In this document: positions 25,426 through 60,860 of the stretch, one piece after another | How the letters are laid out: every line of letters begins with the position of its first letter | Numbering within the stretch: the first letter of the stretch is position 1 | From: Schmidtea nova | Lineage: Eukaryota | Direction: 5' to 3' | Assembly (NCBI GenBank): GCA_044892505.1 | Contig: CM097882.1 | Coordinates: 451,918,001 to 451,982,000, forward strand | DNA length: 64,000 nt | The notes under the pieces: model-generated | The model's database searches: none | Told to the model about the DNA's origin: nothing | Seen by the model: the letters and a program-made list of their open reading frames with translations, nothing else | Program-made: the position numbers and the translations under genes

Positions 25426-25805
25426 CAGTCGAATCAAATTTATTATCATGTTGGATCCACCATTTGGTCCACATTTAACATAAAAAATAATAATAAGAAG
25501 AAATAAATAGGAACAAATTAAATGAATATAATTACGAGAAATATCAGTAAAAAACGAATTAAAATGTAATAAAGACTATTAATTTAATATCAAAATTAGA
25601 AGAAAAGTAAATGGAAAATGTAAAAGTGTTAAAGAAAAATGATAGTTAATTATATTTAAATAATAAGAAAGCGAAATAAATAAGTAAAAAAAAGAAGAAG
25701 AATTAATAAAAATTCGGTAAATTAAAACAAGAAAATGAAAATCATATTTGTTAATAAAATTGATTTTATTTTTACTAGAATTGTATTGATGACCATCAGA
25801 TTGAT

Positions 25806-25850
25806 GCTGATTGGTCAATGAACTGATCTGGTCAGTATAAATACTGATCC
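25806..25850 (+). promoter_or_regulatory. LTR promoter: ATTGG (CCAAT box) + TATAAATA at 25836 (copy at 48039)
   Basis: CTGATTGGTCAAT...CAGTATAAATA(C)TGATCCA is conserved with the diverged solo LTR (57381-57426) while the surrounding sequence is not. Confidence 0.7.
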
Positions 25851-26029
25851 AGATTCAGATAATTTCAAGGTAGTTTATGTTACATTTTTTAACGTAAAGT
25901 TATATGCTCTTTTGAATCAAATTTTGCTATTGGAGGTATGCTTATTATTTTTGTTATATATATTTGTGAATTTTGTCATTGCCATTAGCTAAATAAAACT
26001 TCTTTTAAAAATATCTTATTTTTATTAAG

Positions 26030-26382
26030 CTTCTTCCACTGTGTAATCAGTGGAAGGAGATAAAGGTATTCATAGGATTTATCATAATTAAATTAAGCTT
26101 CTTCCACTGTGCAATCAGTGGAAGGAGACGACTCTATTTATATATTTATTTATCCTTTATTGAGCTTCTTCCATCGTGTAATCGGTGGAAGGAGGCAACA
26201 TTGTGTATGATATTAACAATTAGGTTGAAGAATATTTTTATAAACAATTTTTGGGTCGAGCTTCTTCCCCTGTGAAATCAGTGGAAGGAGGCGAATATAT
26301 ATATTATTTATATACAGTAGATACAGTAGAAATTACGTATGATTTAAGGGGCTCCGATCACCGTGCAATCGGTGAAATGGAG
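26030..26382 (+). other. Array of five ~12-bp-stem hairpins with TG(T/C/A)AAT hexaloop (copy at 48233-48585)
   Basis: CTTCTTCCACTG-TGYAAT-CAGTGGAAGGAG at 26030, 26098, 26165, 26261 and a variant at 26352, separated by unique AT-rich spacers. Confidence 0.85.
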
Positions 26383-26853
26383 GCATACTGTGCCGAGTAG
26401 AATGACTGCTCCGTACAGTTGGGCCGTCCGACCGGTGTATAGCGCCGTGAAGAGGGTAGGAATTTTTATTTTAACCATGATTTCTAACCTTATTTTTCAC
26501 TGGATAGTATAACCAGTTGAAGTTTTATTTTATAACCGATTTGATTTTATGAGTTTATAGTTGAGTAGAGTTTGATTTTAGTTTGAGACAGATATAGCTG
26601 CGATCTTATTAACCTGGTTTTACCTTGAGATTCACAGAGTGTTAACGTATATTTTTCGATTGTCACATCTGGGGTTTGTGGGCATAGAGCGGCAGATACA
26701 CGGTTAAGAATTTGTACAAAATACATTTTTTAAATATAACCATTTCAAAAATCGATAATTCAATAGCGTAGTGATCTACTACGCAAGTAACATAACAGCA
26801 ATAGGTTATAGGATCAAACATTCCACATAAATAATTAAATATAATTGCTTATC

Positions 26854-26989
26854 CTGAACCCTGTACATAGGGCAGTAGATCTTAGTTTATTTAACTAATT
26901 TTGTAACCTGATTGCTGTATATAGCACAGGCGTGAATAAATAAAATGTATTAAGAAATAAATGTATCTGATCGCTGTACATAGCGACAG
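26854..26989 (+). other. Array of three bulged hairpins with GTAYAT hexaloop (copy at 49057-49192)
   Basis: CTG-AA-CCCT-GTACAT-AGGG-CAG; CCTG-AT-TGCT-GTATAT-AGCA-CAGG; CTG-A-TCGCT-GTACAT-AGCGA-CAG. Confidence 0.8.
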
Positions 26990-27117
26990 TGTTGAAAGTG
27001 TAATAGGTAAATCATTTTCTTTTCCTGAATTAGCAATTAATAACTGTCAAAAGTATGAGAATCGTTCGAATCAAGACTACCAATTTCATGTTAATAAACC
27101 ATCTTGAATTTTAGAGA

Positions 27118-27711
27118 ATGTCAGCCAACACAGCAACTAATCAAGCCGAATTGGATAAAGCATGGAGGATAATTCGCAGCCTGGAAAAAGAAATGTTACG
27201 GAAATCTGAAAAATTAAAAGAAGCCGATGGCATAATCTCAAACCTGAAGAAAAGCTGGTTCAGTCCAGAGCAGATGAAAACACAAATTATAAAAAATCAA
27301 CGCTCACAGCGAGCAAACGAGGAGATCAAAATGGAATTGGACGCGACGAACATGGAACTAAAGAAATGTCTAAAATCTGTAACGGCGTCGTATTTAACTC
27401 AAGAGCTCAGCCAGCTCATTCGACCAATCACTTATCAGCATTGGGCTGACGAGAAAGCAGGATGCACAAAAGGAACGAACACCGAGGAACCATCTCAGGT
27501 TCGCGCAATAACAATAGCAGCAAGTACACCAAAGAACACGACAAATCCAGAAGGTAAAAGGAAGAAGAAGAGCAAGATGGGAGCGCGCCAGCGTCGCTGG
27601 AAGAAACAAGTTCTTCAGCAATTGGCACCGCAATCAAAAGAAATTCCCGAAATTGATCTAACTATGAACTTTGCAATATCGGATGAAGACATTACCAAAT
27701 ACTTTGAATAG
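27118..27711 (+). CDS. LTR-encoded 197-aa coiled-coil protein with an Arg/Lys-rich motif
   Basis: Intact ORF, identical in both LTRs, with a clear homologue at 59131-59727 (shared KSWF-P--MK, EL-KCL-SVTASY, IRPITYQ-W); basic motif KRKKKSKMGARQRRWKK. Confidence 0.85.
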   Translation: MSANTATNQAELDKAWRIIRSLEKEMLRKSEKLKEADGIISNLKKSWFSPEQMKTQIIKNQRSQRANEEIKMELDATNMELKKCLKSVTASYLTQELSQLIRPITYQHWADEKAGCTKGTNTEEPSQVRAITIAASTPKNTTNPEGKRKKKSKMGARQRRWKKQVLQQLAPQSKEIPEIDLTMNFAISDEDITKYFE

Positions 27712-28311
27712 GAATTCTGTGATTTAGTTATTTTCGCGTATTAAATAATTTTTGTTTTGTATTTATTTTATCGTAAAGTATATGAAATAGAGTGATTTAT
27801 TAAAAATTTAAAATAATTTAAAGGAAAATATAAATTAAATTAACTATACATTAGAATTAACAATAAGATTAACATAAATCTAATAAACAATAGAAACATT
27901 AAAGAGATAATATATTGTAATTGACTAAAGATTATTTGTTGATATTGTAAAGAAGGGGGCTGAAAGAAAAGTTGAAAGTTGAAATATATTGTAAAGAAAA
28001 GGGGGCTAAAGAAACATTGAAATGAAAGATAATGGATGCGGATAGATTAAAGTAAAAGCGTAAGTCCTTCTATCGGCAGCGAGACGAACCCGTGAACATA
28101 AATGGGGAGTAGTTTTAGCAATAGAGCTCACCTGCCCATCATTGTTCAAACACCTTGCACATTTCCAACTCGATTATTACAGGGAAATGATCGAGGGTGC
28201 TCGTGTGATATGTAAGCATTTTATGTGAGGTTTTGGATGGAGGAATCCCTAGAGCGTTTAGTTTAATTTTCTAATTTTGTTTTAACCCAATCCAGACCGA
28301 CAACATAAATT

Positions 28312-28329: not shown

Positions 28330-28705
28330 GAAAATGGTTTTGTGCGAAAAATTGAATCCAATAATAACAAGGAGTTTTAAAGTGCCCCTCAGCCGAAAAC
28401 TTAATTGATTTTTGTGTTAAAAGTGAAAACAATATCTACAAAGAATCTTGAAAACCAATGATTTAATAAATATAACAACAGACGACTAATAATTGATATT
28501 AAAAATGAAATAAATAAACATAAATAAATATGTCGGGACGACAATTTGATGAAGCAGGGAGAGGTTTAACATCAGAAAACGAAATGTACCACTACTTTTG
28601 ACCAACACAAATCGAACAAATAGGGAAACAAGATATTGAAATTTTTATTTTTGATTGAATAATTAATAAAACAGCAAACATATTAACAATATAAATTATT
28701 TAGCA

Positions 28706-29167
28706 ATGAACGACAAATTAAAAGAAATAGAAGAATTCTTAAACACGGAAAACAAAACATACGATGAACTATGCGAGAAAATAAGTCGAATAAGAGAATC
28801 CAGATTCAAAGAACCCATGACACAAACTGAAGAGACAACAGAGCTGATAAAAATAATGGAAAGAGTAGACAAAATAGATATAACAACTAGATACAAGTGG
28901 TACCGAACGAGAGTAGAAAATGCTGAGTTAAATATAAAATGCAGACAGTTAGAACAACAATTAACTCCAACATACCACAAGTGGACAATACAAGGAACTG
29001 AGACAGCCAAGAAATTTAAACTCTGTTACATATGTCGAGAAAGAGAGAATAAAATCATGTTTTTACCATGTGGACATTTCCGGTTTTGTGGAATCTGTGC
29101 AGCCAATTGCGACAAATGCCCGATGTGCAATCTCGAAATAGACGAAAGAATTATTGTGTATTTATAA
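28706..29167 (+). CDS. C-terminal RING (IAP/XIAP-type C3HC4) protein, no BIR domain
   Basis: CYICRERENKIMFLPCGHFRFCGICAANCDKCPMCNLEIDERIIVYL at the extreme C-terminus, preceded by coiled coil. Confidence 0.85.
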   Translation: MNDKLKEIEEFLNTENKTYDELCEKISRIRESRFKEPMTQTEETTELIKIMERVDKIDITTRYKWYRTRVENAELNIKCRQLEQQLTPTYHKWTIQGTETAKKFKLCYICRERENKIMFLPCGHFRFCGICAANCDKCPMCNLEIDERIIVYL

Positions 29168-29400: not shown

Positions 29401-29871
29401 AATGAGAGTTGATAAAGGCAATGACAGAAATCATGATAGCAATTGATATTTATAAATAATTTTTGAGCTGCTCACGAGTAGTCCGTTAAGCACCCATTGG
29501 GAGGAACCAACTGATCAACTTACCCGAGATATATAGAAAGGGGCCCATCGCGGAAATTGGAAAGCTTTTGTGATGTGACTGATCACCACATCTTGCATTA
29601 GTAGACCAATGCGATCTTTTTGTATGTTTTGGTTGGGGTGAAAGGTAGGGACAATCTAATGAGGTTTAAGTGCATGCAGAAAATACAAATAAAAAAGAGA
29701 GAATAGAACACTGATCAGTGAAAGTCGAAAGAACATTAAGTAAATAAGTAGAATGAAAGTTAATGTGATAACTCTCATAACAATAGAGATAATTCAGCTG
29801 AATGATAACTAGCGAAGTGGATAATTGCGGTTAACCGGTTAAAGAGATTAGTTAAATACCTTGTATAAAAA

Positions 29872-30577
29872 GGGCAAATAAGCCATATTAGTTACTCTGA
29901 AAGAAGGGTCAAGGGCAAATAAGCCATATTAGTTACTCTGAAAGAAGGGTCAAGGGCAAATAAGCCATATTAGTTACTCTGAAAGAAGGGTCAAGGGCAA
30001 ATAAGCCAGATTAGTTACTCTGAAAGAAGGGTCAAGGGCAAATAAGCCATATTAGTTACTCTGAAAGAAGGGTCAAGGGCAAATAAGCCATATTAGTTAC
30101 TCTGAAAGAAGGGTCAAGGGCAAATAAGCCATATTAGTTACTCTGAAAGAAGGGTCAAGGGCAAATAAGCCATATTAGTTACTCTGAAAGAAGGGTCAAG
30201 GGCAAATAAGCCATATTAGTTACTCTGAAAGAAGGGTCAAGGGCAAATAAGCCATATTAGTTACTCTGAAAGAAGGGTCAAGGGCAAATAAGCCATATTA
30301 GTTACTCTGAAAGAAGGGTCAAGGGCAAATAAGCCATATTAGTTACTCTGAAAGAAGGGTCAAAGGCAAATAAGCCATATTAGTTACTCTGAAAGAAGGG
30401 TCAAGGGCAAATAAGCCATATTAATTACTCTGAAAGAAGGGTCAAGGGCAAATAAGCCATATTAGTTACTCTGAAAGAAGGGTCAAGGGCCAACAAGCCG
30501 TATTAGTTAATTACTCTGAAAGAAGGGTCAAGGGCCAACGAGCCATATTAGTTAATTACTCTGAAAGAAGGGTCAAC
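29872..30577. repeat. 41-bp tandem array (GGGCAAATAAGCCATATTAGTTACTCTGAAAGAAGGGTCAA), 15 near-perfect + 2 variant copies
   Basis: Exact 41-bp period from 29872 to 30487. Confidence 0.95.
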
Positions 30578-30579
30578 GG

Positions 30580-30800
30580 CAACATAAGAATTTGAACCTA
30601 TGATTGCAATAGTGATAGCAACACAAGGAATGTGAACCTGTGATTGCGATTGTGGATAGCAACACAAGGAATGTGAACCTGTGATTGCGATTATGGATAG
30701 CAACATAAGGAATATGAACCTATAGTTGTAATTGTTGAAATTTAGTAAATTTAGCAACCTAAGGAATTTGAACCCAGGTTTGCAATTGTGTGAAATTAAA
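30580..30800. repeat. Second degenerate array with 41-bp period (AAGGAATGTGAACCTGTGATTGCGATTGTGGATAGCAACAC)
   Basis: AAGGAAT recurs at 30625, 30666 and 30707. Confidence 0.75.
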
Positions 30801-31419
30801 TGACAACGAAAGGAATATGAACCTAGAGTTGAAGTCGTCGACGAAGTGAGAATAGTGAGCATTAGAGTTTGAGTAATACGAGTAAAGATGATTAAGTAAA
30901 CTAGAGATACAGTATGCATACAAGTAGAAATAAGAATAGGAGAAATTAGAGTTGACTAGAAATAGTGAGAATAATGAGTAATGATGATACCATGAATAGT
31001 GATAAAATGATAATTGAGTCAGGAGAACTCAAGGGAATTAAAGCGTTTGAGCGACAAATTAAATTGGGAGATTGAGGGAAAAGTAATGAATTTATTTGAT
31101 AACGATAGATAATTATTACGACCATATAGATAATTGTTACCAGTGAATAGATAATTTAAATAGACTTAAATAAAGGGGAAACCGGGAATGGGGAAACAAT
31201 GGAAACCCAATAATGAGGAATAAAAGCGCAACGATAACAATGATGTATCGTTGAAGTGACTTTTTAATTTAGATATACGGAACAGAACAAGTCAAAACAA
31301 CCAACCAATCAATCAGAATACGATAACAGAGAAACAGAAAAATTGATAAATTAAAGAAAAGTAAACCGAGATCAAGAGCAGTTAAAAATCAAGAAGTTAA
31401 TAATTCACAAAGAAATAAA

Positions 31420-34400
31420 TTGAGATCAAGAGCAGTTAGTGCTACAATCGAAAAAGTTGATAATTCACAGAGAAATAAATCGAAACAAAGAGCAACCAGT
31501 GCTACAAAGAAAACAAATCCTAAAGGAAGTAAATCAAGAAGAGTAATAGTAGAAAAGTCAAAAATCGAAAACAGTAAATTAACAAAAACTAACGAAAGTG
31601 AAACAGAAGAAAGTTCAAGTGAAACCTACGATAATTATAATAATACGGAAGCATCAGATAACGAGTCAATAAACACAGAAGAAGTAGAAGCAGAAATTGA
31701 TAATAATTCAAACGAAACGAATAACGAGCATACTAGTGAAACAAGAGGAAACGAGAGTAAAACGACACAAGACAGCGGAATTGAAATGAACGAGCATAAA
31801 GAAGAAATCAAAGATAAATTTACTGGAGAACCATTCAATGGAGATGCCAGCAAGTTGGAAACGTTTTTAAAAGAATTTGGTATATTTGTAGAAGTATGTA
31901 AATGGAAACCAGAAACGATAAGGAGCAGAATTCAGTTATATTTAAAAGACAGTGCGTTAGACTTATATTTAGAAGCTAAAAATTCAGATGATCAACTTGA
32001 TAGTTGGGAAAAGATAAAGAATTTTTTCCAGCAAACGTTTGGAATAAATAAAGTATTAAATGAAGCATTTACAGAATTTTCAATGAGGAAACAAAAAGTT
32101 AATGAATCAAATGCAGTATATGCAAGTGAATTAAAGAAATTGGCTAAATTAGCATTTAATCAAAATAGTCCAATGAGTTCAGAATTAATGGCAGCAATTT
32201 TTGTGGGGGGATTGAGAAGACCCGATATAAGAGCACAAGTTGGATGCCAAGGTTGTAAAACAATAGATGAAGCGTTGGAAATCGCTAACAGATTTGAATT
32301 ACATATGATCGGAAGTGAAGGAAGAATTTACCTAGCAATGGATACGACACAAAATGAACAAGCAATGAAGATAAACAATCATATCCCGAATTCACAACAA
32401 TTAAACCGACCACCACCTCAAAGGAGAAATGAGGGAAACAAAGTACAAAATTTCGGAAACCAAAATAATTATAATACGCAAGGACAGACAAAGCAATGTC
32501 AAACCTGTGGAAAGTTAGGACATTGGCAACAAGAATGTTTCGTGAACTTAAATTGTAAAACGTGTGGAAGAAAAGGACATTCGGAAAATAGATGTTACCA
32601 AAGATCATGTTATAACTGTGGACAACCAGGTCATATGGCAAAGAATTGCCAACAACAAAACAACCAGCTAAGGAATTGGTCGAACAACGGAAATCGACAA
32701 AATTATGCGAATCAACAGAATAACGGAAACCGTCAGAGTTATGGAAATCAACAGAGTAATTATAACCAGAATAAAAGTACCACCAAAGAAATACATTTAT
32801 TACAAGAAGTTCAGAGATTGACAGAGTTAATAAATAATACACCGAGAGGAAATCAACAAACGAATCAACAACAAATGAATATGATGAGAAAAGTAGAAAG
32901 TGAAAACGAACGACTAAATCGAGAAAGTCAAGCACGACATGCTCAAGAATGGGCAAGAATACAAAGAGAAGACGAACAGAAACGACAAGAAAGAGAACGA
33001 CAACCATTGAGAATTAATATGATGAGAGCAACGAATCAAACAAGAGATAACAAAGAAGATATTGAACCAGAAACAAACCGGATAAACCCAAATCCGGAAG
33101 ATGAAGAAAACCAAAAAGAAATAGTACAAGAAAACGAAGAAGTTATTAAACAAAAAAGGATGTTGGTAGTCATGCCAAACGATCATGTATTTCGATTTGA
33201 ATATGATGAAAAAGAGGAAGTAGGAGTATTAATTAATAAAGTAAACAAGACGATTCCGGGAATGACGAAACTACCCCGAGAAGCAATTTTACAGACAGAA
33301 GACGAAGCAGCAATAAAATTGAAACCAACCGACATATGGAAAGATTTAGGAGTACCAATGAATAAAATGAAAGTCACAGTTATCCAGGAAATAGAAGAAA
33401 ATAACGATGAAGAGAAATCAAAACCAGTAACAAAAGTCAAAAGTAGAGCATTGAAGATATTTGAAGAGAGAATCAAACAGAGAAAAGCAATGGAGATAGA
33501 AAAACGAAGAGGCCAAATAGAAGAATCAGGAACCAATGACAAAAAGGAAGGAATACCACAAAAAAATGTACCAGATAAAGTAGAACAGACAGCACTCATT
33601 AATATGTTAAGAAACTTAACTAGAGAATTTTCAGATGTAGAAAGTGACAGTGATGTCAGTAGTTTAGCAGGAGATATGCTAAAAGAACCAGAAAATGAAG
33701 ACAACAAGATAGAAGTAGCGAAGACGCCAGAAAATATACAAATAAAAGAAGATGAAATTCAGAAACTATTAGATAATGCGTTAGAAGTGATTTATAACGA
33801 AGAATTTATTGATAAGAAGCGATATCGAAAATTTATAAGAGCAGTATTCCGAACGAACTATAAAGAACGGTTACAAAGTCGTGAATTAGAGATATTATCA
33901 GGATACGTCGTCAAACTATTAGAAGAACCACTCCACGAATACATAATTTTAATAGAAATAAACGAATGTTCACCAAGAATTTGGATCAAATCTCCATGCA
34001 CGAATGAAATTTATCGATGGGTAGAAGACAGATTGGGAAGTTCGTATAAAAACAAATTTATATATTCAGGAAACGAACTTGTAAGACGAGCAACGCATTT
34101 GGTAGAAACAGGCATATGGCCAGGAGAGATAAAAACATTATCAATATGCGACAATAAGAAAGAGGAGAATTTACAAGAAATTGCAAAGGAAGCAAATATG
34201 TGTTTTGAGATGAGAATTAAACCTCAGTTAGTAGAAAGGAAAGAAAGAATTCTTAGAGAAAATTTAAATTCACTAATAGAACAAATTATTCAACAAATCG
34301 ACAAGAATAGAGAAGAATTAACAAAAACTGAATATGAGAAATTAAAACAATGCATCGAAAATATACGAGATACCAGCCATACGAGACATTCGTCATACAA

Positions 34401-37400
34401 GACTTGGAAAGTGATCGCGAAAATGGGAAAAGCGATGTTTAAACGAGGAGAAATAGGAGATTTGAAAATCAAAGTGAAATTACCAAACGAGGACACAAAA
34501 GAAATTGAAGTAATCGCGGATTGCACAATAGAAGAATTAGTTGATGTTATCAATGAGACTTTATTACAACGGGAAAAAGAAGACGAATTAGAAGACGATA
34601 TCATCATGAAATATAATGAACACGTGCTAGGAGATCATGATGAGAGACGATTATATAAAATTGGCATATGGGATAATTACCAAACAATTCATGTTATCAG
34701 AATGGATGATACACCAAGAGAAACACCAAAAGATGAAAAAAGGAGACAAGAACGTCGAAGAGAAGAGATGCACAAACTAAGACAAATAATAGAAATTTAT
34801 CGAAGATGGCAGATACAGCCAGAATGGGAAAATGTTTTAGGAGAATTAAACTTCAACGAACGCCGATTAATACCAGTAGAGAAACACTGGGAGGTTAAAG
34901 AGAAATGCTGGAAAGCAAAAGGAGGTATATATGAAGAGGAATTTAGACCAGAAATGGAAGACAAATATGAACCAGAAATTAGAAGAGTTTGTATGGTGAC
35001 AAGAAAAGTCATGCCAACAGATTTAGATGGACCAGAAACCGCAGCAATATGGTTAGAAACGCAAAAACGAAAAGCTGACGAACTTATTGAATTACTAAAA
35101 GGAAACGTACAAGGAAAAAGGCGAACGATCAAAGGATTAGCCGAATTCTTTGTAGCAGGCGGCGAAGATATAATCAGTTTAAGAAAAGTAGCCAAGGTAG
35201 TAACAGAATATAAACGAGTTAACGAGTGGTGCCCAGAACAATTAGACAATGTAATCAAGAAATGGAGAAACCAAGAAAACTCCCAAGAACCACCGCAGAA
35301 AATACATTTAAGGATAATATATCCAGATCGAGAAAAAGAAGAACTTTGGGTAAGATTAACCGAAAAGATTCGAGATGTTAAAAAGAGATTAAAATATGAA
35401 CCACCATTTCATCTACAACATCAAGGACGATCACTAGAAAACGATATGGAAATTTGGATAACGCCAGCACAGTTAGAACTGGCAAATACGTTAACAGTAG
35501 ACGCAATAGCAGGTCAACCATTAAAACTTAAAGAGAAAAGAATAAAAGAAAGTGGAGATACTCAGAATCTAAGGAAGACGATGCAGATAAAACCAGGAAC
35601 AAGCGCAAGGCAGTACGAAACAACATCAATTAAAATCCAAGAAAGAACTCGACCACAACCATACGATACAGAAGAAATCTTAACAGACAGTGATGACATG
35701 CTAGAAGAATTAGCAAAATTGACAAAAGAAAAAGGCAATAATATTTTCGAAAGAGTACAAGAGTTACCTACAACATCACAAGCAATCAATACCCAAGATG
35801 AAGTTGAGCAAGAAATAGAGATAGAAGAAGTGAACGAAATCTCTGAAGAAGAAGCAAGAGGAGCAAATACAGAAAAGGAACGATTAACACAAGAAATGGA
35901 AAAATGGTGGGAACAGAGAAATAATGAACCAAGAGATGTTACAGAGGAAACTGGACGAGAAACCAGATTGATTGAAGCAGGTACAACAATGGATAGACGA
36001 CCTAGAGGTAGACCAAAGACTGATCCAGCCAACATAATCAACAAAACTAAAGAGGAAAGGAGACAAGAGAAATGGGAATTATGTTTAAAGAAACTCAACA
36101 AAATAGCAGAAGCAAAAGACCAGGAAATAACGCAAAAATGTCAAGGTGAAGGATGGATATCAAAAACACTAATGGAAATATTGGCGATAATTGATCCAGA
36201 ATTGAAAAAATGGTGGAGAATAAACGAAATAAGCGACAAGGCTAAAGCATTACATAGCGCAATCGCACCAATCTTACCCGAACTGATAAAAGAGAAGACA
36301 AAATCAAGCCATTTAGATTGGCAAGGGACCACAACGTTGATAAAGAGGTTAACTGAAGATGCAGAAAACGATAATAAATATGTGATAGCAATTGCGTATA
36401 CAATTTATAACTTATTAACATTGAGTAGAGGTAATCCAAAATCTATGGCAATAGAGAAACATATCAAAAATACGGCAGGCATCATAGCAAAAGAAATAGA
36501 ACCATACGTCATCAGTAAAGGAGGATGGGAAACATTTGTTAAAACGAATCAAAGAAACAGTCAAGCAAAGAATATGAAAAAGAAATTTGAAGAAATTTTA
36601 GGAGAATTAGAAAAAGAAAAGTCAGGAACAGGAGGTGGAAAACCTTCACTAAACCTGAATTCAATCATAATGATGATATTAATATGGCTAATTAGCGTTG
36701 AAGGAGCAACGGCGTTCGAAGTATTTGATTGCGACCAGATGGCATTAGGAGAAAAATATTCATTAAGAGGAACCGAACAATGCAAAGATGCAACTCCAAC
36801 AGAGCTAAAAGTACTACATAGTAAACAAATATATCACGTATATCAGGAAGCCGACTTAATAAAGACAACAGTTAATGAATGTAAAATATATAAAACAAGA
36901 TTTGCTTTTTATTGTGGACATCGCCACTACTCTGCAATCGTAATGCCAGGAACGGAAAGGGAAGCGATAATGTTACAAGGAGAAGATTGCAATAAATTGT
37001 TCAAACATGGAGAAGTCGAAACAAGAGATCGAATAAAGATAAGAGGAAAAGCTGGAGTAATACTACAACAAACATATTATGTAGCAGGAGCTATCACAGG
37101 AGGAGAAGGTTACTGTCAAGGAGCAACATATCCAATATTTGGAGTACCAGCAACTAACCTGGTAGTAATCGACACATACACGGTAGAATTAAAAGCGTAT
37201 GAAGCATATTTTGACCCAGCTACAGGAGAAATGAAGACGTTATCAATGTGCAAAATTGAAGCCAGTACTTGTCAAACCGGTATGTCAACTTTAACATACA
37301 GAGCAAAAGCAAATGAATGCCAATTACAATTATTAAAGGAAGCGGAGTTCGACGAGGTACAAGGAAAAATCTTTCAGGAAGAATATGATGATGAAGTAGC

Positions 37401-40400
37401 AAGAGGAAAACGTCTACAGGAGACAGTAAAAGGAGAGAAACCGTTCACAACTAAAGTACAAGAAAAAGAGGTGAGGATGAGGGAGACGCCAACAGTATTG
37501 GTTACATCAAACGCAAATATAGGAATGAGGTTTGTAAAAGGAAAACCGACATTAAAATGTGGTGTTTCTATGTTAGAAACGAATTACCCAGGTATTTATG
37601 TATCAAGACAAGCAGCACCAAATGCAAAACCCAAGGTAGATACTACAGACATCAAATTACACGTATATTTAAATAACAAATTGGATTTTTTATTTCACAA
37701 AGGCCAAGCATCAATGGAGAAAATATACTACGATCTCATTAACAGCGACTGTATATTGAACAGAGAAATATTAAAGACGAAATTAGCAGTAGCAATTACA
37801 AACCCGGATAGTGCTATGCCATTATTACCACTTAACGAAGGTCATTTTGGAAGAGTAGTTGGAGAAGTTATGTACGTATATATATGTCGAAAGACACAGG
37901 CAAACGTAGCAACAACGACCAGAATACGACAAGGACAATGTACCAATGAATTGGAAATTGAATATAAAGGGAAAATAAGATATGTACAACCAGTGACAAG
38001 GATCATTAATCCGGTCAGTTTTGAACCAAACCCTTTCAATTGCAGTAACGCATACGGACCACTATATCAGAAACCAGACGGAAATTGGGTCATGTTTCCG
38101 TCAAAATCAGAAGTACAACCACCTAGAGAATTTGAATTGATGCAACTTTCAAAAGGACGAAAATTTTCCAATATAGATGTAAATAATGGAGGAATTTACA
38201 GTGCAAAAGATCTCGAAGCAGCACGACAAAATATATTATTTCCAGCTAGGAGAGAAGCAGTATTATCTAGCATCGTAACGATAACAGGAGGAACAAGTTA
38301 TCAAGGAGGACCAAATTATGAATTATTACTGTCACCAGCACACTTTAGGAAAGCAACAGAAAATATGATGAAAGCAATGTGGGGACGATTTTTAATTTTC
38401 GGACAAATGATGGCCGGAATACTAGGTGTAATTTTAATCATACAAATAATACGAGTGATAATCACACAAATGCTAGCATGCTTTGATATTTATAAAAGAG
38501 AAAAGAAAGTTAATTGGAAATTAATAGCAGGATTTTTACCATTTTTAGCAAAAACGATGGTGTTACATGGTCACTCCAAAGATATTCACAGAATAAAACG
38601 ATTATTAAAAATACTGGCAAAAATGAAAGGAACGGATGAAGACGTGGGAAGAAAATTCAAAAAGATAATGACAGATGAACAAGCGAGACTACAATTAAAA
38701 AGAGAAAGAAAAGGATTATGGGAAAGAATAAGAGGAGATAAAACTCAAGATGATTCCAGTGATGACGATGATAACAATGACGACTGCGAAGGAGGGCAAA
38801 GGTACAGAAACCAAGCACCGCAATATAGCGACAAGAATCCAGCAGAAGCATGGAAATGTCACGCACCTCCACCAACAATGTACCAAGAACCATTACAGGT
38901 ATCAGGACACAGAGCAATGCAAATGATGCCAATGACAACTTTATATCCAATTATACCAGAAGATTATAAACTTAGACGATGTAGAAGTATGGATCCGCAA
39001 GACGATTCACTCACAATTGCAGTCATGACATCAAATATAGGACCAGTATTAACTACAACTATAGAAATAAATGGAAAAGAAATAGAAGCGATGATAGATA
39101 CAGGAGCAAATATTTCGGCGATAGATATCAAATGGATACCGCAAGAACAGAGACAAGAAATCGAAAGAACAAATGTTCATGTAATCGCATGTAGCAAAGA
39201 GATAGTTGAAGTTGCAGGAAGATGGTGGATAAAAATACGACACCAAAATATAGAAATCGAAACGTATGTAGCAGTAATACCAGCTTTAAGCGTACCATGT
39301 ATAATCGGAACAGATTTAATGCCAACACTATTTAAAGAAATAATCATCGATCTTGGAACAATGAGATTAAAGGACAGAACAGGGAAAATATGTGCTATGG
39401 AAGCAAAAGTAATAAACTCGAAACAAATAATGATACCGGAAGAAAGAATCATGACGAGATCACAAACAGTCAGAATAAATATGCTCAGAGCAGAGGAAAT
39501 TAACACAACTAGTCAAGTAGAAAGTGAGAAAATCGATGTTGACAAAGAAATCGTACGAAAAGCCAAAGAAATAAACGAAAGATGGGAAATCAGACAAGAA
39601 AAAGACGTATTATGGGATATACGACAAATAATTAGTGATTACGCACGAGGATGCCCAACCAAACCAATCATAATAGAATTACTAAAGAAAATACCAGAGA
39701 TACTCGTATTACAAGATACAGGAAGTGCAACTGCACTACACAATGCCATAAGTTGGGGTAAAACGGAAAAAGTAAAAGAATTTTTGAAAATAGCAAAAGA
39801 AACGAATCAAAATCTAGACATTGTAAATCGAGAATTAGAAACGCCAATGATGACAGCAACACTAAGCTTAGCAGATAAAGAAATAGTAGATATGCTGATC
39901 AACGCAGAATTCAACTGGACAGCTCGTGATAGAAGAGGAAACACAGTTTTAAACCATGCAATAATGAGTGAAAATCAAATGATACTAAAACATATAACAA
40001 CCAACCTCACATGGGAAATCGATGAATTAATCAAAGGAGAAATTATGAAGGAAGCGATTCGGAAAGGAAACACTAAAACCATATGGAAACTAATACAATG
40101 GAAATGGCCGAATAATAAAACATGGGTATTAGATATAAACAAAGAATTTAGCGAAGGACAGAACGCGCTATTGAGATACTTATTAGAGTTTACGTGCGAT
40201 CAGAGAACAATGTTAGCACTAATAAATAGAGGAAAAATAAATATTAGTAAAAACGAAGAGGAATATAAACTAGAAGTCGAAAAGAAAGCGTTATTCAGGA
40301 AAATTTGGATATGGTGTCAAAAACAACTACGCAAAGACATAAGCTACAAAAATCTAAATGATTTCCAAGAAAAGTATAAAACGATAATAAAGGAATACAA

Positions 40401-40656
40401 GAAGCTAGTGGAGATATTAAACGATCCAGAAAAATTTAATCAAGCAATAAATCAGAAAGAAGAAGAAAGTAAAAGGATACTCACACCATTGTTCAACGCG
40501 AAGCTAGATTACCAAGAAAGATTAGATGCAATACACAAAAAAGCAAAGGAACTATTACCAGAATTCAAAAATACTAAATACGCCTTGGAAATACTTGGCG
40601 CGATAGTAGAAAAGTACACGCGTACGCGAAAGGAATATATAATGGAAACGACATAA
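31420..40656 (+). CDS. 3078-aa polyprotein: Gag - 3x CCHC - ubiquitin-like domains - AT-hook - Bcl-2-like - signal/TM - chuvirus-type fusion glycoprotein - TM - retropepsin - ankyrin repeats; true start uncertain
   Basis: Gag FNGDASKLETFLKEF..QLYLKDSALD; CQTCGKLGHWQQEC, CKTCGRKGHSENRC, CYNCGQPGHMAKNC; RRPRGRPK; EPYVISKGGWETFV; VEGATA|FEVFDC; FGQMMAGILGVILII; AMIDTGANISAI..IIGTDLM; TALHNAISWG, RGNTVLNHAI. The frame is open from 31327, but the first ATG is about 120 codons in. Confidence 0.92.
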   Translation: MRSRAVSATIEKVDNSQRNKSKQRATSATKKTNPKGSKSRRVIVEKSKIENSKLTKTNESETEESSSETYDNYNNTEASDNESINTEEVEAEIDNNSNETNNEHTSETRGNESKTTQDSGIEMNEHKEEIKDKFTGEPFNGDASKLETFLKEFGIFVEVCKWKPETIRSRIQLYLKDSALDLYLEAKNSDDQLDSWEKIKNFFQQTFGINKVLNEAFTEFSMRKQKVNESNAVYASELKKLAKLAFNQNSPMSSELMAAIFVGGLRRPDIRAQVGCQGCKTIDEALEIANRFELHMIGSEGRIYLAMDTTQNEQAMKINNHIPNSQQLNRPPPQRRNEGNKVQNFGNQNNYNTQGQTKQCQTCGKLGHWQQECFVNLNCKTCGRKGHSENRCYQRSCYNCGQPGHMAKNCQQQNNQLRNWSNNGNRQNYANQQNNGNRQSYGNQQSNYNQNKSTTKEIHLLQEVQRLTELINNTPRGNQQTNQQQMNMMRKVESENERLNRESQARHAQEWARIQREDEQKRQERERQPLRINMMRATNQTRDNKEDIEPETNRINPNPEDEENQKEIVQENEEVIKQKRMLVVMPNDHVFRFEYDEKEEVGVLINKVNKTIPGMTKLPREAILQTEDEAAIKLKPTDIWKDLGVPMNKMKVTVIQEIEENNDEEKSKPVTKVKSRALKIFEERIKQRKAMEIEKRRGQIEESGTNDKKEGIPQKNVPDKVEQTALINMLRNLTREFSDVESDSDVSSLAGDMLKEPENEDNKIEVAKTPENIQIKEDEIQKLLDNALEVIYNEEFIDKKRYRKFIRAVFRTNYKERLQSRELEILSGYVVKLLEEPLHEYIILIEINECSPRIWIKSPCTNEIYRWVEDRLGSSYKNKFIYSGNELVRRATHLVETGIWPGEIKTLSICDNKKEENLQEIAKEANMCFEMRIKPQLVERKERILRENLNSLIEQIIQQIDKNREELTKTEYEKLKQCIENIRDTSHTRHSSYKTWKVIAKMGKAMFKRGEIGDLKIKVKLPNEDTKEIEVIADCTIEELVDVINETLLQREKEDELEDDIIMKYNEHVLGDHDERRLYKIGIWDNYQTIHVIRMDDTPRETPKDEKRRQERRREEMHKLRQIIEIYRRWQIQPEWENVLGELNFNERRLIPVEKHWEVKEKCWKAKGGIYEEEFRPEMEDKYEPEIRRVCMVTRKVMPTDLDGPETAAIWLETQKRKADELIELLKGNVQGKRRTIKGLAEFFVAGGEDIISLRKVAKVVTEYKRVNEWCPEQLDNVIKKWRNQENSQEPPQKIHLRIIYPDREKEELWVRLTEKIRDVKKRLKYEPPFHLQHQGRSLENDMEIWITPAQLELANTLTVDAIAGQPLKLKEKRIKESGDTQNLRKTMQIKPGTSARQYETTSIKIQERTRPQPYDTEEILTDSDDMLEELAKLTKEKGNNIFERVQELPTTSQAINTQDEVEQEIEIEEVNEISEEEARGANTEKERLTQEMEKWWEQRNNEPRDVTEETGRETRLIEAGTTMDRRPRGRPKTDPANIINKTKEERRQEKWELCLKKLNKIAEAKDQEITQKCQGEGWISKTLMEILAIIDPELKKWWRINEISDKAKALHSAIAPILPELIKEKTKSSHLDWQGTTTLIKRLTEDAENDNKYVIAIAYTIYNLLTLSRGNPKSMAIEKHIKNTAGIIAKEIEPYVISKGGWETFVKTNQRNSQAKNMKKKFEEILGELEKEKSGTGGGKPSLNLNSIIMMILIWLISVEGATAFEVFDCDQMALGEKYSLRGTEQCKDATPTELKVLHSKQIYHVYQEADLIKTTVNECKIYKTRFAFYCGHRHYSAIVMPGTEREAIMLQGEDCNKLFKHGEVETRDRIKIRGKAGVILQQTYYVAGAITGGEGYCQGATYPIFGVPATNLVVIDTYTVELKAYEAYFDPATGEMKTLSMCKIEASTCQTGMSTLTYRAKANECQLQLLKEAEFDEVQGKIFQEEYDDEVARGKRLQETVKGEKPFTTKVQEKEVRMRETPTVLVTSNANIGMRFVKGKPTLKCGVSMLETNYPGIYVSRQAAPNAKPKVDTTDIKLHVYLNNKLDFLFHKGQASMEKIYYDLINSDCILNREILKTKLAVAITNPDSAMPLLPLNEGHFGRVVGEVMYVYICRKTQANVATTTRIRQGQCTNELEIEYKGKIRYVQPVTRIINPVSFEPNPFNCSNAYGPLYQKPDGNWVMFPSKSEVQPPREFELMQLSKGRKFSNIDVNNGGIYSAKDLEAARQNILFPARREAVLSSIVTITGGTSYQGGPNYELLLSPAHFRKATENMMKAMWGRFLIFGQMMAGILGVILIIQIIRVIITQMLACFDIYKREKKVNWKLIAGFLPFLAKTMVLHGHSKDIHRIKRLLKILAKMKGTDEDVGRKFKKIMTDEQARLQLKRERKGLWERIRGDKTQDDSSDDDDNNDDCEGGQRYRNQAPQYSDKNPAEAWKCHAPPPTMYQEPLQVSGHRAMQMMPMTTLYPIIPEDYKLRRCRSMDPQDDSLTIAVMTSNIGPVLTTTIEINGKEIEAMIDTGANISAIDIKWIPQEQRQEIERTNVHVIACSKEIVEVAGRWWIKIRHQNIEIETYVAVIPALSVPCIIGTDLMPTLFKEIIIDLGTMRLKDRTGKICAMEAKVINSKQIMIPEERIMTRSQTVRINMLRAEEINTTSQVESEKIDVDKEIVRKAKEINERWEIRQEKDVLWDIRQIISDYARGCPTKPIIIELLKKIPEILVLQDTGSATALHNAISWGKTEKVKEFLKIAKETNQNLDIVNRELETPMMTATLSLADKEIVDMLINAEFNWTARDRRGNTVLNHAIMSENQMILKHITTNLTWEIDELIKGEIMKEAIRKGNTKTIWKLIQWKWPNNKTWVLDINKEFSEGQNALLRYLLEFTCDQRTMLALINRGKINISKNEEEYKLEVEKKALFRKIWIWCQKQLRKDISYKNLNDFQEKYKTIIKEYKKLVEILNDPEKFNQAINQKEEESKRILTPLFNAKLDYQERLDAIHKKAKELLPEFKNTKYALEILGAIVEKYTRTRKEYIMETT

Positions 40657-44155: not shown

Positions 44156-44251
44156 TCAAATTGTAGCGGAAAATTGTATATATGTAAAAATAAAACTCTA
44201 GAAAAATCAAAAACAAAGAACAAATCAATGTGTGTATATATTATTGTAGAA

Positions 44252-45607
44252 ATGGATAAAGAGGAACGAGCAGTCGAGATTTTGAGAGCAGCAAACAGAA
44301 ATTGGAACAAGAGATTTGTATGTGGATATTGTAATAATTTATTACGGAAACCAAAGCAAACCGCCTGTGGATGTAGATTATGCACCAGATGTGTACAAAT
44401 GTTAGAACTAAAGAAAATAACAGAATGTCCAGAATGTAAAGAAGGACAAATAGTATTAGACGAAACAAGACCAGATAGAGCAACTCAGAGAGAAATCATG
44501 AGCATATTAATTGAATGTATAAATCCACCGTGCATATGGCAAGGACAAATCAGCGAAATTGAAAATCATATAGAAAATTGTGAAGAAAAGAGAAGCGAAT
44601 GTGAAAAGTGTAAAGAAACGATAATTTTAAAAGACAAAGAGAAACACAGAGGTGAATGCAAAGAGGAAGAAATCGCATGTGAATATTGCGAAATTCGAGA
44701 AACAAGGAGAAAATTTGAAGAGGAGCACATCAATATAAAAGAAGAGAGAATATGCGAACAGTATGTAGGAGTGTGCCCAAACAAATGTGAAATTACCGAA
44801 GAAGTGAAATTACGAGAACATTGGGAAAAGTGTACAGAAATACCAAGAGAATGTCCTTACAACAGATATGGATGCAAGGAAAAGAAGTCTCAACAAAATA
44901 TGAAACAACATTTAGAAACAGAAGCAATCAATCATATTGAAATGACAGACAGAACAATTCAGAAATTAGAAAAAGAAGTGGAATCTCATAAAATAATGAT
45001 GAACCTATTATTAGAAACGAGAGAACAGTTTGAATTAACCCGAAGAAAGATGGAAAAGAAAATAATAGCCATCAAGGAATTAGCAAAAGGAATGAAAGTG
45101 CAATATAACAAGTTAATACAAGAAATTGATGAGAAAAAAGATTTACCAATAGCACCTTATGTGTGGAAAATAACGGATTTCCGAAATAAATTGGAAGATG
45201 CACGAAGCTTCAAGAAAACTGCGGTAATAAGCCCACCATTTTACTTATGGAAAAACGGGGCTAAAGTGAGATTGAAAGTATACCCAAACGGAGATGGGAC
45301 AAGTATTGGAAAACACGTATCGATATTTTTTGCGTTTTGCAAAGGAGAATATGACGATTTAATCGATTGGCCGATAGGAGTAGGAGTAATGATAAAAATC
45401 AGGGGTTTAAACGAGACCATAGAAAAGAGATTCACGACAGAAAAAGGAGCAGTTACGAGTAACAGACCAACAGAAGAATGTGGATTAGCAAGTGGAGAAC
45501 CACACTTTGTATTACAAAGCAAGATATGGGGATTATTGTATGAGGACACCTTATACATAGAAATGGAAAGGAACGAGAAGGCAGATAGAAAAGGATGGTT
45601 GGCGTAG
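44252..45607 (+). CDS. TRAF-family protein (RING, TRAF zinc fingers, coiled coil, MATH/TRAF-C), intronless
   Basis: CGYCNNLLRKPKQTACGCRLCTRC..CPEC; C-N--C-W-G-----E-H---C; PYVWKITDF..ISPPFY....AKVRLKVYPNGDG...GKHVSIFF..KGEYDDLIDWP. The likely ATG is 44252 (alternative 44228; the frame is open from 44174). Confidence 0.95.
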   Translation: MDKEERAVEILRAANRNWNKRFVCGYCNNLLRKPKQTACGCRLCTRCVQMLELKKITECPECKEGQIVLDETRPDRATQREIMSILIECINPPCIWQGQISEIENHIENCEEKRSECEKCKETIILKDKEKHRGECKEEEIACEYCEIRETRRKFEEEHINIKEERICEQYVGVCPNKCEITEEVKLREHWEKCTEIPRECPYNRYGCKEKKSQQNMKQHLETEAINHIEMTDRTIQKLEKEVESHKIMMNLLLETREQFELTRRKMEKKIIAIKELAKGMKVQYNKLIQEIDEKKDLPIAPYVWKITDFRNKLEDARSFKKTAVISPPFYLWKNGAKVRLKVYPNGDGTSIGKHVSIFFAFCKGEYDDLIDWPIGVGVMIKIRGLNETIEKRFTTEKGAVTSNRPTEECGLASGEPHFVLQSKIWGLLYEDTLYIEMERNEKADRKGWLA

Positions 45608-47648: not shown

Positions 47649-50508
47649 TGTTGGATCCACCATTTGGTCCACATTTAACATAAAAAATAATAATAATAAT
47701 AAGAAATAAATAGGAACAAATTAAATGAATATAATTACGAGAAATATCAGTAAAAAACGAATTAAAATGTAATAAAGACTATTAATTTAATATCAAAATT
47801 AGAAGAAAAGTAAATGGAAAATGTAAAAGTGTTAAAGAAAAATGATAGTTAATTATATTTAAATAATAAGAAAGCGAAATAAATAAGTAAAAAAAAGAAG
47901 AAGAATTAATAAAAATTCGGTAAATTAAAACAAGAAAATGAAAATCATATTTGTTAATAAAATTGATTTTATTTTTACTAGAATTGTATTGATGACCATC
48001 AGATTGATGCTGATTGGTCAATGAACTGATCTGGTCAGTATAAATACTGATCCAGATTCAGATAATTTCAAGGTAGTTTATGTTACATTTTTTAACGTAA
48101 AGTTATATGCTCTTTTGAATCAAATTTTGCTATTGGAGGTATGCTTATTATTTTTGTTATATATATTTGTGAATTTTGTCATTGCCATTAGCTAAATAAA
48201 ACTTCTTTTAAAAATATCTTATTTTTATTAAGCTTCTTCCACTGTGTAATCAGTGGAAGGAGATAAAGGTATTCATAGGATTTATCATAATTAAATTAAG
48301 CTTCTTCCACTGTGCAATCAGTGGAAGGAGACGACTCTATTTATATATTTATTTATCCTTTATTGAGCTTCTTCCATCGTGTAATCGGTGGAAGGAGGCA
48401 ACATTGTGTATGATATTAACAATTAGGTTGAAGAATATTTTTATAAACAATTTTTGGGTCGAGCTTCTTCCCCTGTGAAATCAGTGGAAGGAGGCGAATA
48501 TATATATTATTTATATACAGTAGATACAGTAGAAATTACGTATGATTTAAGGGGCTCCGATCACCGTGCAATCGGTGAAATGGAGGCATACTGTGCCGAG
48601 TAGAATGACTGCTCCGTACAGTTGGGCCGTCCGACCGGTGTATAGCGCCGTGAAGAGGGTAGGAATTTTTATTTTAACCATGATTTCTAACCTTATTTTT
48701 CACTGGATAGTATAACCAGTTGAAGTTTTATTTTATAACCGATTTGATTTTATGAGTTTATAGTTGAGTAGAGTTTGATTTTAGTTTGAGACAGATATAG
48801 CTGCGATCTTATTAACCTGGTTTTACCTTGAGATTCACAGAGTGTTAACGTATATTTTTCGATTGTCACATCTGGGGTTTGTGGGCATAGAGCGGCAGAT
48901 ACACGGTTAAGAATTTGTACAAAATACATTTTTTAAATATAACCATTTCAAAAATCGATAATTCAATAGCGTAGTGATCTACTACGCAAGTAACATAACA
49001 GCAATAGGTTATAGGATCAAACATTCCACATAAATAATTAAATATAATTGCTTATCCTGAACCCTGTACATAGGGCAGTAGATCTTAGTTTATTTAACTA
49101 ATTTTGTAACCTGATTGCTGTATATAGCACAGGCGTGAATAAATAAAATGTATTAAGAAATAAATGTATCTGATCGCTGTACATAGCGACAGTGTTGAAA
49201 GTGTAATAGGTAAATCATTTTCTTTTCCTGAATTAGCAATTAATAACTGTCAAAAGTATGAGAATCGTTCGAATCAAGACTACCAATTTCATGTTAATAA
49301 ACCATCTTGAATTTTAGAGAATGTCAGCCAACACAGCAACTAATCAAGCCGAATTGGATAAAGCATGGAGGATAATTCGCAGCCTGGAAAAAGAAATGTT
49401 ACGGAAATCTGAAAAATTAAAAGAAGCCGATGGCATAATCTCAAACCTGAAGAAAAGCTGGTTCAGTCCAGAGCAGATGAAAACACAAATTATAAAAAAT
49501 CAACGCTCACAGCGAGCAAACGAGGAGATCAAAATGGAATTGGACGCGACGAACATGGAACTAAAGAAATGTCTAAAATCTGTAACGGCGTCGTATTTAA
49601 CTCAAGAGCTCAGCCAGCTCATTCGACCAATCACTTATCAGCATTGGGCTGACGAGAAAGCAGGATGCACAAAAGGAACGAACACCGAGGAACCATCTCA
49701 GGTTCGCGCAATAACAATAGCAGCAAGTACACCAAAGAACACGACAAATCCAGAAGGTAAAAGGAAGAAGAAGAGCAAGATGGGAGCGCGCCAGCGTCGC
49801 TGGAAGAAACAAGTTCTTCAGCAATTGGCACCGCAATCAAAAGAAATTCCCGAAATTGATCTAACTATGAACTTTGCAATATCGGATGAAGACATTACCA
49901 AATACTTTGAATAGGAATTCTGTGATTTAGTTATTTTCGCGTATTAAATAATTTTTGTTTTGTATTTATTTTATCGTAAAGTATATGAAATAGAGTGATT
50001 TATTAAAAATTTAAAATAATTTAAAGGAAAATATAAATTAAATTAACTATACATTAGAATTAACAATAAGATTAACATAAATCTAATAAACAATAGAAAC
50101 ATTAAAGAGATAATATATTGTAATTGACTAAAGATTATTTGTTGATATTGTAAAGAAGGGGGCTGAAAGAAAAGTTGAAAGTTGAAATATATTGTAAAGA
50201 AAAGGGGGCTAAAGAAACATTGAAATGAAAGATAATGGATGCGGATAGATTAAAGTAAAAGCGTAAGTCCTTCTATCGGCAGCGAGACGAACCCGTGAAC
50301 ATAAATGGGGAGTAGTTTTAGCAATAGAGCTCACCTGCCCATCATTGTTCAAACACCTTGCACATTTCCAACTCGATTATTACAGGGAAATGATCGAGGG
50401 TGCTCGTGTGATATGTAAGCATTTTATGTGAGGTTTTGGATGGAGGAATCCCTAGAGCGTTTAGTTTAATTTTCTAATTTTGTTTTAACCCAATCCAGAC
50501 CGACAACA
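47649..50508 (+). repeat. 3' LTR (2860 bp)
   Basis: Same sequence at offset 22200/22203; the encoded proteins are identical. Confidence 0.95.
49321..49914 (+). CDS. 3' LTR copy of the 197-aa LTR protein
   Basis: Identical translation to 27118-27711. Confidence 0.85.
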   Translation: MSANTATNQAELDKAWRIIRSLEKEMLRKSEKLKEADGIISNLKKSWFSPEQMKTQIIKNQRSQRANEEIKMELDATNMELKKCLKSVTASYLTQELSQLIRPITYQHWADEKAGCTKGTNTEEPSQVRAITIAASTPKNTTNPEGKRKKKSKMGARQRRWKKQVLQQLAPQSKEIPEIDLTMNFAISDEDITKYFE

Positions 50509-51560: not shown

Positions 51561-51633
51561 ATAATAATAATAATTATTATTATTATCAATAATTCTCATA
51601 ATGATGACTATAGATCAAAATTTTTTTTTAAAC

Positions 51634-51675
51634 AATACCACAATATTTCGGCACAGCCTTTATCAAGTGTGTATT
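51634..51675 (-). ncRNA. Inverted copy of the pLTR hammerhead ribozyme
   Basis: Reverse complement of 54501-54542. Confidence 0.65.
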
Positions 51676-54417: not shown

Positions 54418-54500
54418 ATTTTTTCATCCAATAAAATCATTTTAAAATATAAAAAAATAATTAAGGTTACTATTTAGGATTAAGTTAATATAACGATTGA

Positions 54501-54542
54501 AATACACACTTGATAAAGGCTGTGCCGAAATATTGTGGTATT
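54501..54542 (+). ncRNA. Minimal type I hammerhead ribozyme in the Penelope pLTR (U3-A8 variant)
   Basis: AATACACAC-TTGATAA-A-GGC-TGT-GCC-GAA-ATAT-T-GTGGTATT: core UUGAUAA/GAAA, 3-bp stem II, palindromic stem III, and stem I AATAC.CAC/GTG.GTATT. Confidence 0.7.
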
Positions 54543-54575
54543 GTTTAAAAAAATAATTTTTGATCTATAGTCATC

Positions 54576-60560: not shown

Positions 60561-60860
60561 GAGTTTTTTTATTGTTGGTAGCTCTATGCTAGAGAAAAAC
60601 CTTACATTAATTAGTAAAGAGAAAATTATAAAAATTAATTAAATCAATTTTAAAAATCGTGAAATAAATTAGATATTTTTAAATAATTAGCATATAACGC
60701 AGTCTACTTTTAACCCAAAAGATTTCAAATATTAAAAAAATGTTTTTGCAACACTTGTTTTAAAATCAATATTAAATCAAACATAAATATGTAATTAATT
60801 ATACAATTTTAATTTACAAATATCATTTAATATTTCGAATTAAAGCTATTTAATAACAAA

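Follow-up and report, generated by a model that had tools for sequence, protein, structure and literature searches.

Element structure and gene content

The window, by which we mean the whole 64,000-nucleotide stretch that was analysed, contains a 25.06-kb LTR element with 2.86-kb LTRs (Table 1). The two LTRs are 99.86% identical over 2861 nt and ATCA lies at both flanks, so the insertion is recent. A copy with pol is about 3 kb longer, and by size the element falls with the Burro-type giants. It has many relatives in the same genome: all 150 scored matches, out of 1222 candidates, match it at 79-100%.

Table 1. Features of the LTR element, in window positions
Feature	Position	Strand	Basis
5' LTR (TG...CA), 4-bp target-site duplication ATCA just before	25449..28305	+	Comparison with 3' LTR
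Accessory ORF, C3HC4 RING finger	28670..29167	+	PF13920, E 1.1e-11
Polyprotein ORF, 3109 aa stop to stop, first Met at 31786	31327..40656	+	ORF list, Pfam
RGRP motif upstream of the domain, presumably AT-hook-like	35995..36018	+	Sequence
Extra N-terminal helix with LxxIA, outside the Bcl-2 superposition	36067..36114	+	Model helix 2-17; structural matches span model residues 24-164
Divergent Bcl-2-fold domain	36133..36546	+	Profiles, predicted fold, dN/dS
BH1 signature position, NDNK where NWGR expected	36367..36378	+	Alignments
BH2-like motif, 17-mer; GGW at 36520-36528	36493..36543	+	Sequence, in frame in 3109-aa ORF
Spacer, 39 residues: predicted helix (low-confidence model), then Gly/Ser-rich stretch	36544..36660	+	Model, sequence
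Predicted internal Env signal peptide: 13-residue hydrophobic core 36661-36699, A-T-A site ending 36714	36661..36714	+	Hydropathy, residue rules, profile start in relatives
Env, Monjiviricetes/chuvirus-type fusion glycoprotein; transmembrane helix about 38407-38463	36715..38463	+	PF24664, E 6e-71; hydropathy
Retropepsin	39058..39327	+	Pfam
Remainder of polyprotein past frameshift: ankyrin, second signal-like helix, repeats, transmembrane helix	40578..43697	+	ORF list, Pfam, hydropathy
Accessory TRAF ORF (RING, zinc fingers, MATH)	44156..45607	+	PF22486, E 1e-20
3' LTR, ATCA directly after	47649..50508	+	LTR comparison, flanks

The 3109-aa ORF encodes, in order, Gag, CCHC knuckles, a ubiquitin-like region, a Bcl-2-like domain, Env, a protease, and ankyrin repeats. 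Pfam matches cover Gag, the knuckles, the Monjiviricetes-type fusion glycoprotein, the retropepsin, and the ankyrin repeats. A frameshift near 40.6 kb separates the last part of the polyprotein from this ORF. Directly after the retropepsin, about 3 kb encoding RT-RNase H-integrase is absent in frame, with the junction near 39421-39437. This was located by comparison with a copy that is 96-97% identical to the window element and retains these domains (L061/L062). Frames of 4108-4118 aa occur in 13 of the 150 genome matches, which suggests an amplified subfamily that has Env and lacks pol. The RING ORF has no Pfam match to a BIR.

Up to four ubiquitin-like units, with helical blocks between them, can be made out by eye in 33100-35598. 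Pfam reports OTU1_UBXL alone for this stretch (E 0.11), and ubiquitin matches were obtained in the library proteins P0003 and P0004. Near the end of the polyprotein, 41721-43500 has a signal-like helix at 41721, a hydrophobic stretch at 42273, and a transmembrane helix at 43461; the repeats here look fibronectin-III-like by eye and have no Pfam match. Judged by these features, the region is likely a second membrane protein that closes the polyprotein, and a shorter counterpart occurs in F2 and F4.

A divergent Bcl-2 domain precedes Env

A first-pass annotation had placed a viral-style Bcl-2 domain at residues 1602-1796 of the 3109-aa ORF, on the strength of a motif that closely parallels the BH2 of Bcl-xL. 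The parallel stands: 8 of the 17 residues equal those of the BH2 in Bcl-xL chains of the PDB. Taken alone, this match has E 0.13 against the PDB, which is not significant. Other searches with the window copy were blank or weak. Pfam, PF00452 included, gave no match, a single-sequence search among longer proteins was blank, as was one that used alignment A2 against proteins close to it in length, and an Atlas feature search with the domain returned unrelated matches under 0.9, with low recognition.

Two non-circular profile tests recognize the domain. A profile of 10 cellular Bcl-2 sequences, run against the 583 ORFs of the window, finds it at E 2.8e-5 (next best ORF, 0.06). A profile-profile comparison of five rows of the window's family with the cellular Bcl-2 profile gives a probability of 94% and E 1.2e-7, while the reversed control gives 0.3% and E 0.22. 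The BH2 likeness is thus more than chance. Profiles built from element sequences only match Bcl-xL in the PDB over helices 4-8 (E 1.6e-7 and 3e-9), a test that is partly circular in that some rows had been found by Pfam. A PF00452 search of the genome places 33 of 150 scored matches above the cut-off. Among the 30 loci fetched, 16 are element frames just before the start of Env and 14 look cellular. Unlike the window copy, sister families pass the Pfam cut-off at the same place in the polyprotein. We conclude that the window domain is almost certainly a Bcl-2 homologue.

The first-pass annotation also held that the BH1 position lacks NWGR, and the aligned residues (within the in-frame peptide 36346-36396) bear this out. 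In canonical pro-survival Bcl-2s the BH3 pattern is L-x-x-h-G-D in helix 2. The window copy has INEISD at the expected spacing; four other subfamily representatives have S-E here, and the motif is not retained in other families. Neither a scan of eight loci nor a further search turned up a host BH3 with a G-D core. The LxxIA helix occurs upstream of the domain in four of the eight families; we considered it as a BH3 mimic and rejected it, as it is without G-D and is missing from the other four. The RGRP motif lies just upstream in two of the eight genome families (F2 is one) and in P0003 and P0004.

Predicted fold

An AlphaFold2 model was built from 22 rows without a recognizable cellular Bcl-2, and reached pLDDT 70 and pTM 0.65. 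In a wide structural search of 48,161 chains, the top 14 are all Bcl-2 family members and cover the whole domain; in another comparison, all 50 listed rows belong to the family. The first-pass expectation of a Bcl-2-like fold thus held when put to structure prediction. The best match is KSHV Bcl-2 (Z 8.7, rmsd 3.7, 119 aligned), and the best matches are pro-survival proteins (KsBcl-2, Bfl-1, Bcl-xL). Further viral Bcl-2s follow with EBV BHRF1 at Z 6.6, ASFV A179L at 6.6, and myxoma M11L at 5.7. Pro-death members score 7.2 (BAK), 6.9 (BOK), and 6.7 (BAX), and vaccinia A52 scores 5.6.

Among helical bundles a Z of 8.7 counts as middling; the weight of the assignment rests on the agreement of sequence and fold. 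Foldseek on the model gave nothing under E 0.001; the PDB rows it listed are all Bcl-2 family, and its viral library was led by viral Bcl-2s. A first model from 13 rows was poor (pLDDT 44), and Bcl-xL nonetheless ranked top with it, at E 0.3.

Conservation and loss of the BH1 signature

We compared 17 representatives, 11 from eight families of the window genome and six library proteins. They were picked once inspection had shown that each has a BH2-like motif as well as an Env start. The library search had given 15 matches, from which P0005 and P0012 were dropped as spurious; P0003, P0006, P0007, and P0008 are without an Env start and stand outside the 17. The layout of Bcl-2 before Env is common to the eight families and the six outside proteins.

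The W and G of BH1 are missing in all 17 representatives. A further copy, L041, has the W. Many cellular Bcl-2s of the window genome are also without the G, mostly with the W in place. The BH1 G is required for BH3 binding in Bcl-xL. Going by its residues at this position, the domain falls outside the canonical pro-survival Bcl-2/Bcl-xL type, and with W and G gone the BH3 groove is probably altered. BH2 is retained across deep lineages of the element domain.

The dN/dS of the Bcl-2 domain is 0.051-0.074, against 0.053-0.069 for Env and 0.14-0.17 for the upstream region; the values come from five related comparisons of pairs in which dS is close to saturation. Among 29 near copies of the domain, 21 distinct variants change an amino acid and 19 are silent. 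The ratios indicate purifying selection on the Bcl-2 domain as strong as that on Env. A tree was built from 19 element domains and 10 cellular ones. A single weakly supported branch (77/94) separates element from cellular domains, branches are long, and the topology would be compatible with one capture.

Families F3 and F4 (L083 vs L086) are 48% identical in the Bcl-2 domain and 89% identical in Env; this contrast may reflect either rapid change in Bcl-2 or an exchange of env.

The helix before Env

According to the first-pass annotation, the domain is followed directly by the only hydrophobic helix before the glycoprotein. The helix is the only one, in that its core is the sole 13-residue window before Env above hydropathy 2 (2.74, compared with 1.65 for the core helix of the domain). 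It does not follow directly, as the spacer lies between it and BH2. It has the features of a signal peptide: an n-region of net +1, the hydropathy of 2.74, and small residues at -3/-1 (A-T-A). The end that had been given to the Bcl-2 stretch, 36714, is the -1 residue of this predicted site.

These features are shared. None of the 17 representatives lacks the hydrophobic 13-residue core; in 16 the -3/-1 residues are small, in the same register, three residues before the [YF]DC of Env. PF24664 matches in relatives start on the helix, at profile positions 4-8; the listed best stretch of the window copy starts later. The helix is very probably the internal signal peptide of Env. It lies 22-57 residues from the BH2 Trp in the representatives and 45 in the window copy, compared with 17-20 in three cellular Bcl-2s. 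Because the glycoprotein profile starts on the helix and the distance from the BH2 Trp is long and variable, the helix appears to be Env's own signal peptide made internal by fusion, rather than a Bcl-2 tail. The proposal that the membrane tail of Bcl-2 doubles as the Env signal peptide therefore keeps its signal half, while the descent it assumed was likely the reverse.

The predicted Env ectodomain that follows (36715-38406) has 564 residues, one N-glycosylation sequon, and 14 cysteines.

With an internal signal sequence the N side stays cytosolic, and the product upstream of it would thus remain tethered once cleavage has occurred. On this topology the Bcl-2 part is likely to be held at the membrane at least briefly; whether the anchor is lasting and useful we judge an even question. 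On a crude additive hydrophobicity scale, the window helix scores 2.9 and three cellular tails score 1.6-2.7. On the same scale, 9 of the 17 helices score 2.9 or better and the other 8 score 3.1-7.6, which ranks them as poorer anchors than the three cellular tails. The window helix is thus near-cellular in hydrophobicity and internal, becoming C-terminal only after the predicted cleavage. The signal role is conserved and a lasting anchor may not be. No retropepsin site that would release the Bcl-2 domain from Gag was identified in the polyprotein.

A derivative family without Env and Pol

The genome also contains an env-less, pol-less family of about 985 aa with Gag, CCHC knuckles, a ubiquitin-like region, an eroding Bcl-2 domain, and the helix with its cleavage site. 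Here helix and site are joined, a few residues on, to the last transmembrane helix of the polyprotein. By hand count, 79 of 150 scored matches (733 candidates) span this junction, 17 of them with frames of 981-1001 aa. Loci of the family are L119-L138, L139:2077-5049, and L140:2415-5381; of 20 that were fetched, 15 are open through the junction. The GGW of BH2 is retained in 4 of 20, while the helix persists. The family probably goes back to one ancestral event, since the junction is shared. It fits a role for the helix without Env; the pattern of an eroded BH2 and a kept helix fits an anchor for Gag equally well. A dN/dS of 0.34 for the env-less Bcl-2 against F4, set beside 0.24 for a pair of autonomous families, did not establish relaxed selection.

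Contigs from four of four runs of one study contain, for the family to which the window element belongs, a joint with short sides that removes both Bcl-2 and Env; these contigs are of unrecorded kind and uninformative on transcripts or splicing.

Proposed role and alternatives

We propose that the element encodes a Bcl-2 homologue within a Gag-Env-Pol polyprotein, that the helix is the signal peptide of Env, and that after the cut an ER-tethered Bcl-2 damps host cell death. We favor this account with a confidence slightly short of even. Gag through Bcl-2 would be made in the cytosol. The helix would then insert with its N side cytosolic, Env would be threaded into the lumen, and the cut is predicted after A-T-A. 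The transmembrane helix of Env is predicted to bring the protease and Pol back to the cytosol. Cleavage would leave Gag through Bcl-2, or a piece released by the retropepsin, tail-anchored in the manner of the HCV core signal sequence. The tethered Bcl-2 may work with the RING and TRAF genes of the element, keeping the producing cell alive. The domain resembles viral Bcl-2s in its modeled fold and probably in purpose; we lean a little towards an anti-apoptotic function.

We count for this account the homology profiles, the fold, the low dN/dS, the register of the signal peptide, the anchor score of 2.9, and the env-less family, with the anchoring of HCV core and the reported Burro1 IAP as context. 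Counted against it are the middling Z, the blank Foldseek result under E 0.001, the loss of BH1 W and G, the 8 of 17 poor anchors, and the spacer of 22-57 residues. Also counted against it are the single-event origin of the env-less family with GGW in 4 of 20, the joint that deletes Bcl-2 with Env, and the brief anchor described for HCV core.

A first alternative, which we consider rather doubtful, is that the helix serves only as the Env signal peptide and is trimmed by signal peptide peptidase or cut by retropepsin, so that Bcl-2 is soluble or loosely attached and anchoring is incidental. The helix corresponds to the first positions of the glycoprotein profile, its core is about 13 residues, 8 of 17 helices score poorly as anchors, the spacer varies in length, and HCV core gives a precedent for release, as described in PMC13185624. 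Set against this, the env-less family retains helix and cleavage site without an Env to export, and 9 of 17 helices, at 2.9 or better, are at or near the cellular range.

It is unlikely that the Bcl-2 fold has been repurposed, either as a matrix-like tether that keeps Gag or nucleic acid at the membrane site of Env synthesis or as a poxvirus-type signaling adaptor, with the anchor serving assembly and not apoptosis. The loss of BH1 W and G in 17 of 17, the RGRP motif just upstream in some families, the fixed place between Gag and Env, the erosion of BH2 with a kept helix in the env-less family, and the Z of 5.6 for vaccinia A52 are consistent with such a change. The top structural matches are pro-survival proteins, however, and BH2 is kept across deep lineages. 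The missing G is likewise seen in many cellular Bcl-2s of the genome, and other cell-death genes sit on the same element.

We regard as improbable a pro-death or pore-forming member of the Bax/Bak/Bok kind that aids particle exit or ER membrane remodelling. BAK, BOK, and BAX score within about 2 Z of the top match, INEISD sits at the BH3 position of the window copy, and four families have the extra LxxIA helix upstream; yet in four other subfamily representatives an E takes the place of the acidic D of BH3, other families do not retain the acidic residue, and hundreds of open-frame copies suit a killer poorly. That the BH2 likeness is due to chance, or the domain a functionless relic carried in frame, would agree with the lack of a Pfam match in the window copy, the blank or weak single-sequence searches, and the unrelated Atlas matches, and is largely refuted by the two profile tests, the fold ranking, the sister families above the Pfam cut-off at the same place, and a dN/dS as low as that of Env.

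Returning to an ER-tethered Bcl-2, a wider and tentative scenario, which we rate as less than likely, is that a clade of enveloped retroelements captured Bcl-2 once and rebuilt its BH1 groove, with one helix that both exports Env and fixes the Gag-linked Bcl-2 on the ER. A parasite family without env and pol would have kept this module and spread to dozens of copies, and the anchored module would have a function in its own right, either in survival or as a matrix protein.

The result contributes a topology, open to testing, for an unusual arrangement of Gag, Env, and Pol in one polyprotein, in which a Bcl-2 copy is held by selection as firmly as Env yet has lost the usual signature of BH3 binding. 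If the domain protects cells, it would be a second anti-death arm, in hundreds of copies, beside the IAP reported for such elements in PMC13465017. Should it give no protection, particle assembly would be a novel use of this fold.

Comparison with known systems

PMC6431247, citing Grohme 2018 and Jurka 2007, describes Burro/GYPSM1 as giant LTR elements of gypsy-like type in planarians, with a BCL2-like motif and with env in frame between BCL2 and protease, and suggests that they meddle with apoptosis. Its section on these elements is silent on a signal peptide, on topology, on loss of BH1, and on env-less derivatives. The window element agrees with this description in its giant size, in a MATH-TRAF, and in a single polyprotein with Gag, CCHC, ubiquitin-like, BCL2-like, mononegavirus-type env, protease, and ankyrin parts. 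Many sister copies have 5140-aa frames, the length given for one Burro-like ORF1 (PMC6431247). Unlike Burro as described there, the window copy is without RT-RH-IN and has a frameshift, its TRAF is a downstream ORF, and its RING is without a BIR. Matched by this published layout, the window element is a Burro-type giant Ty3/gypsy element; the adjacency of BCL2 and env is already published for Burro, and the window case is mainly a confirmation of it. Two points are new here: all 17 representatives have lost W and G of BH1, and an env-less family retains Gag, Bcl-2, and helix. In our literature search, descriptions of the signal-peptide topology, of the loss of BH1, or of env-less derivatives did not turn up; Grohme 2018, Lee 2026, and their supplements may cover them.

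The domain resembles KSHV Bcl-2, EBV BHRF1, ASFV A179L, and myxoma M11L in predicted fold, low identity, and a kept BH2. Viral pro-survival Bcl-2s are free-standing genes with their own tails. The window domain is, in contrast, embedded in a polyprotein and has lost BH1 W and G. With cellular Bcl-xL, Bcl-2, and Bfl-1 it shares the profile match over helices 4-8 and the 8 of 17 BH2 identities; it differs from them in having no NWGR, in the 45 residues (vs 17-20) between BH2 Trp and helix, and in the cleavage site and Env that follow the helix.

In HCV core the C-terminal signal sequence serves as an anchor that signal peptide peptidase later cuts (PMC13185624); an anchor of this kind can thus be short-lived. 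Like the core protein in that account, the Bcl-2 part is a cytosolic N-terminal product for which a signal sequence ahead of an envelope protein in the polyprotein would be the anchor. The sequences are unrelated, and for the window element signal cleavage and anchor trimming are predictions. For the Burro1 IAP, protection of stem cells against apoptosis has been reported (PMC13465017). This B-IAP (Lee et al. 2026, via PMC13465017) is an anti-apoptotic gene on the same kind of element. According to the same source, B-IAP is a BIR-RING protein that acts on caspase-mediated apoptosis, whereas the window domain has a Bcl-2 fold.

Other features of the window and related elements

Each LTR contains four hairpin-like 63-nt repeats (26012-26305; 48215-48508) and a 198-aa ORF (27115-27711; 49318-49914) with a weak PC-Esterase match (E 0.007). 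The leader contains a near-perfect 41-nt tandem array (29706-30661). F2 and F4 have a second ORF of approximately 600 aa after the polyprotein (L068:4309-6228, L141:3961-5868) that is retained in the env-less family (L139:4952-6724); the L068 copy had no Pfam match. Downstream, in or near the F2 element, an ORF at L068:9257-9895 matches RNA_helicase PF00910 above the cut-off (E 4.6e-7), which is unusual in a retrotransposon. Outside the element, at window positions 51617-54559, inverted arms of 460 nt enclose an RT fragment (53146-54417), and there is a local duplication. An unbroken 563-aa frame at 60831-62522 encodes the GS motif and kinase of a TGF-beta type I receptor, and an LTR-like piece at about 59960-60150 adjoins it.
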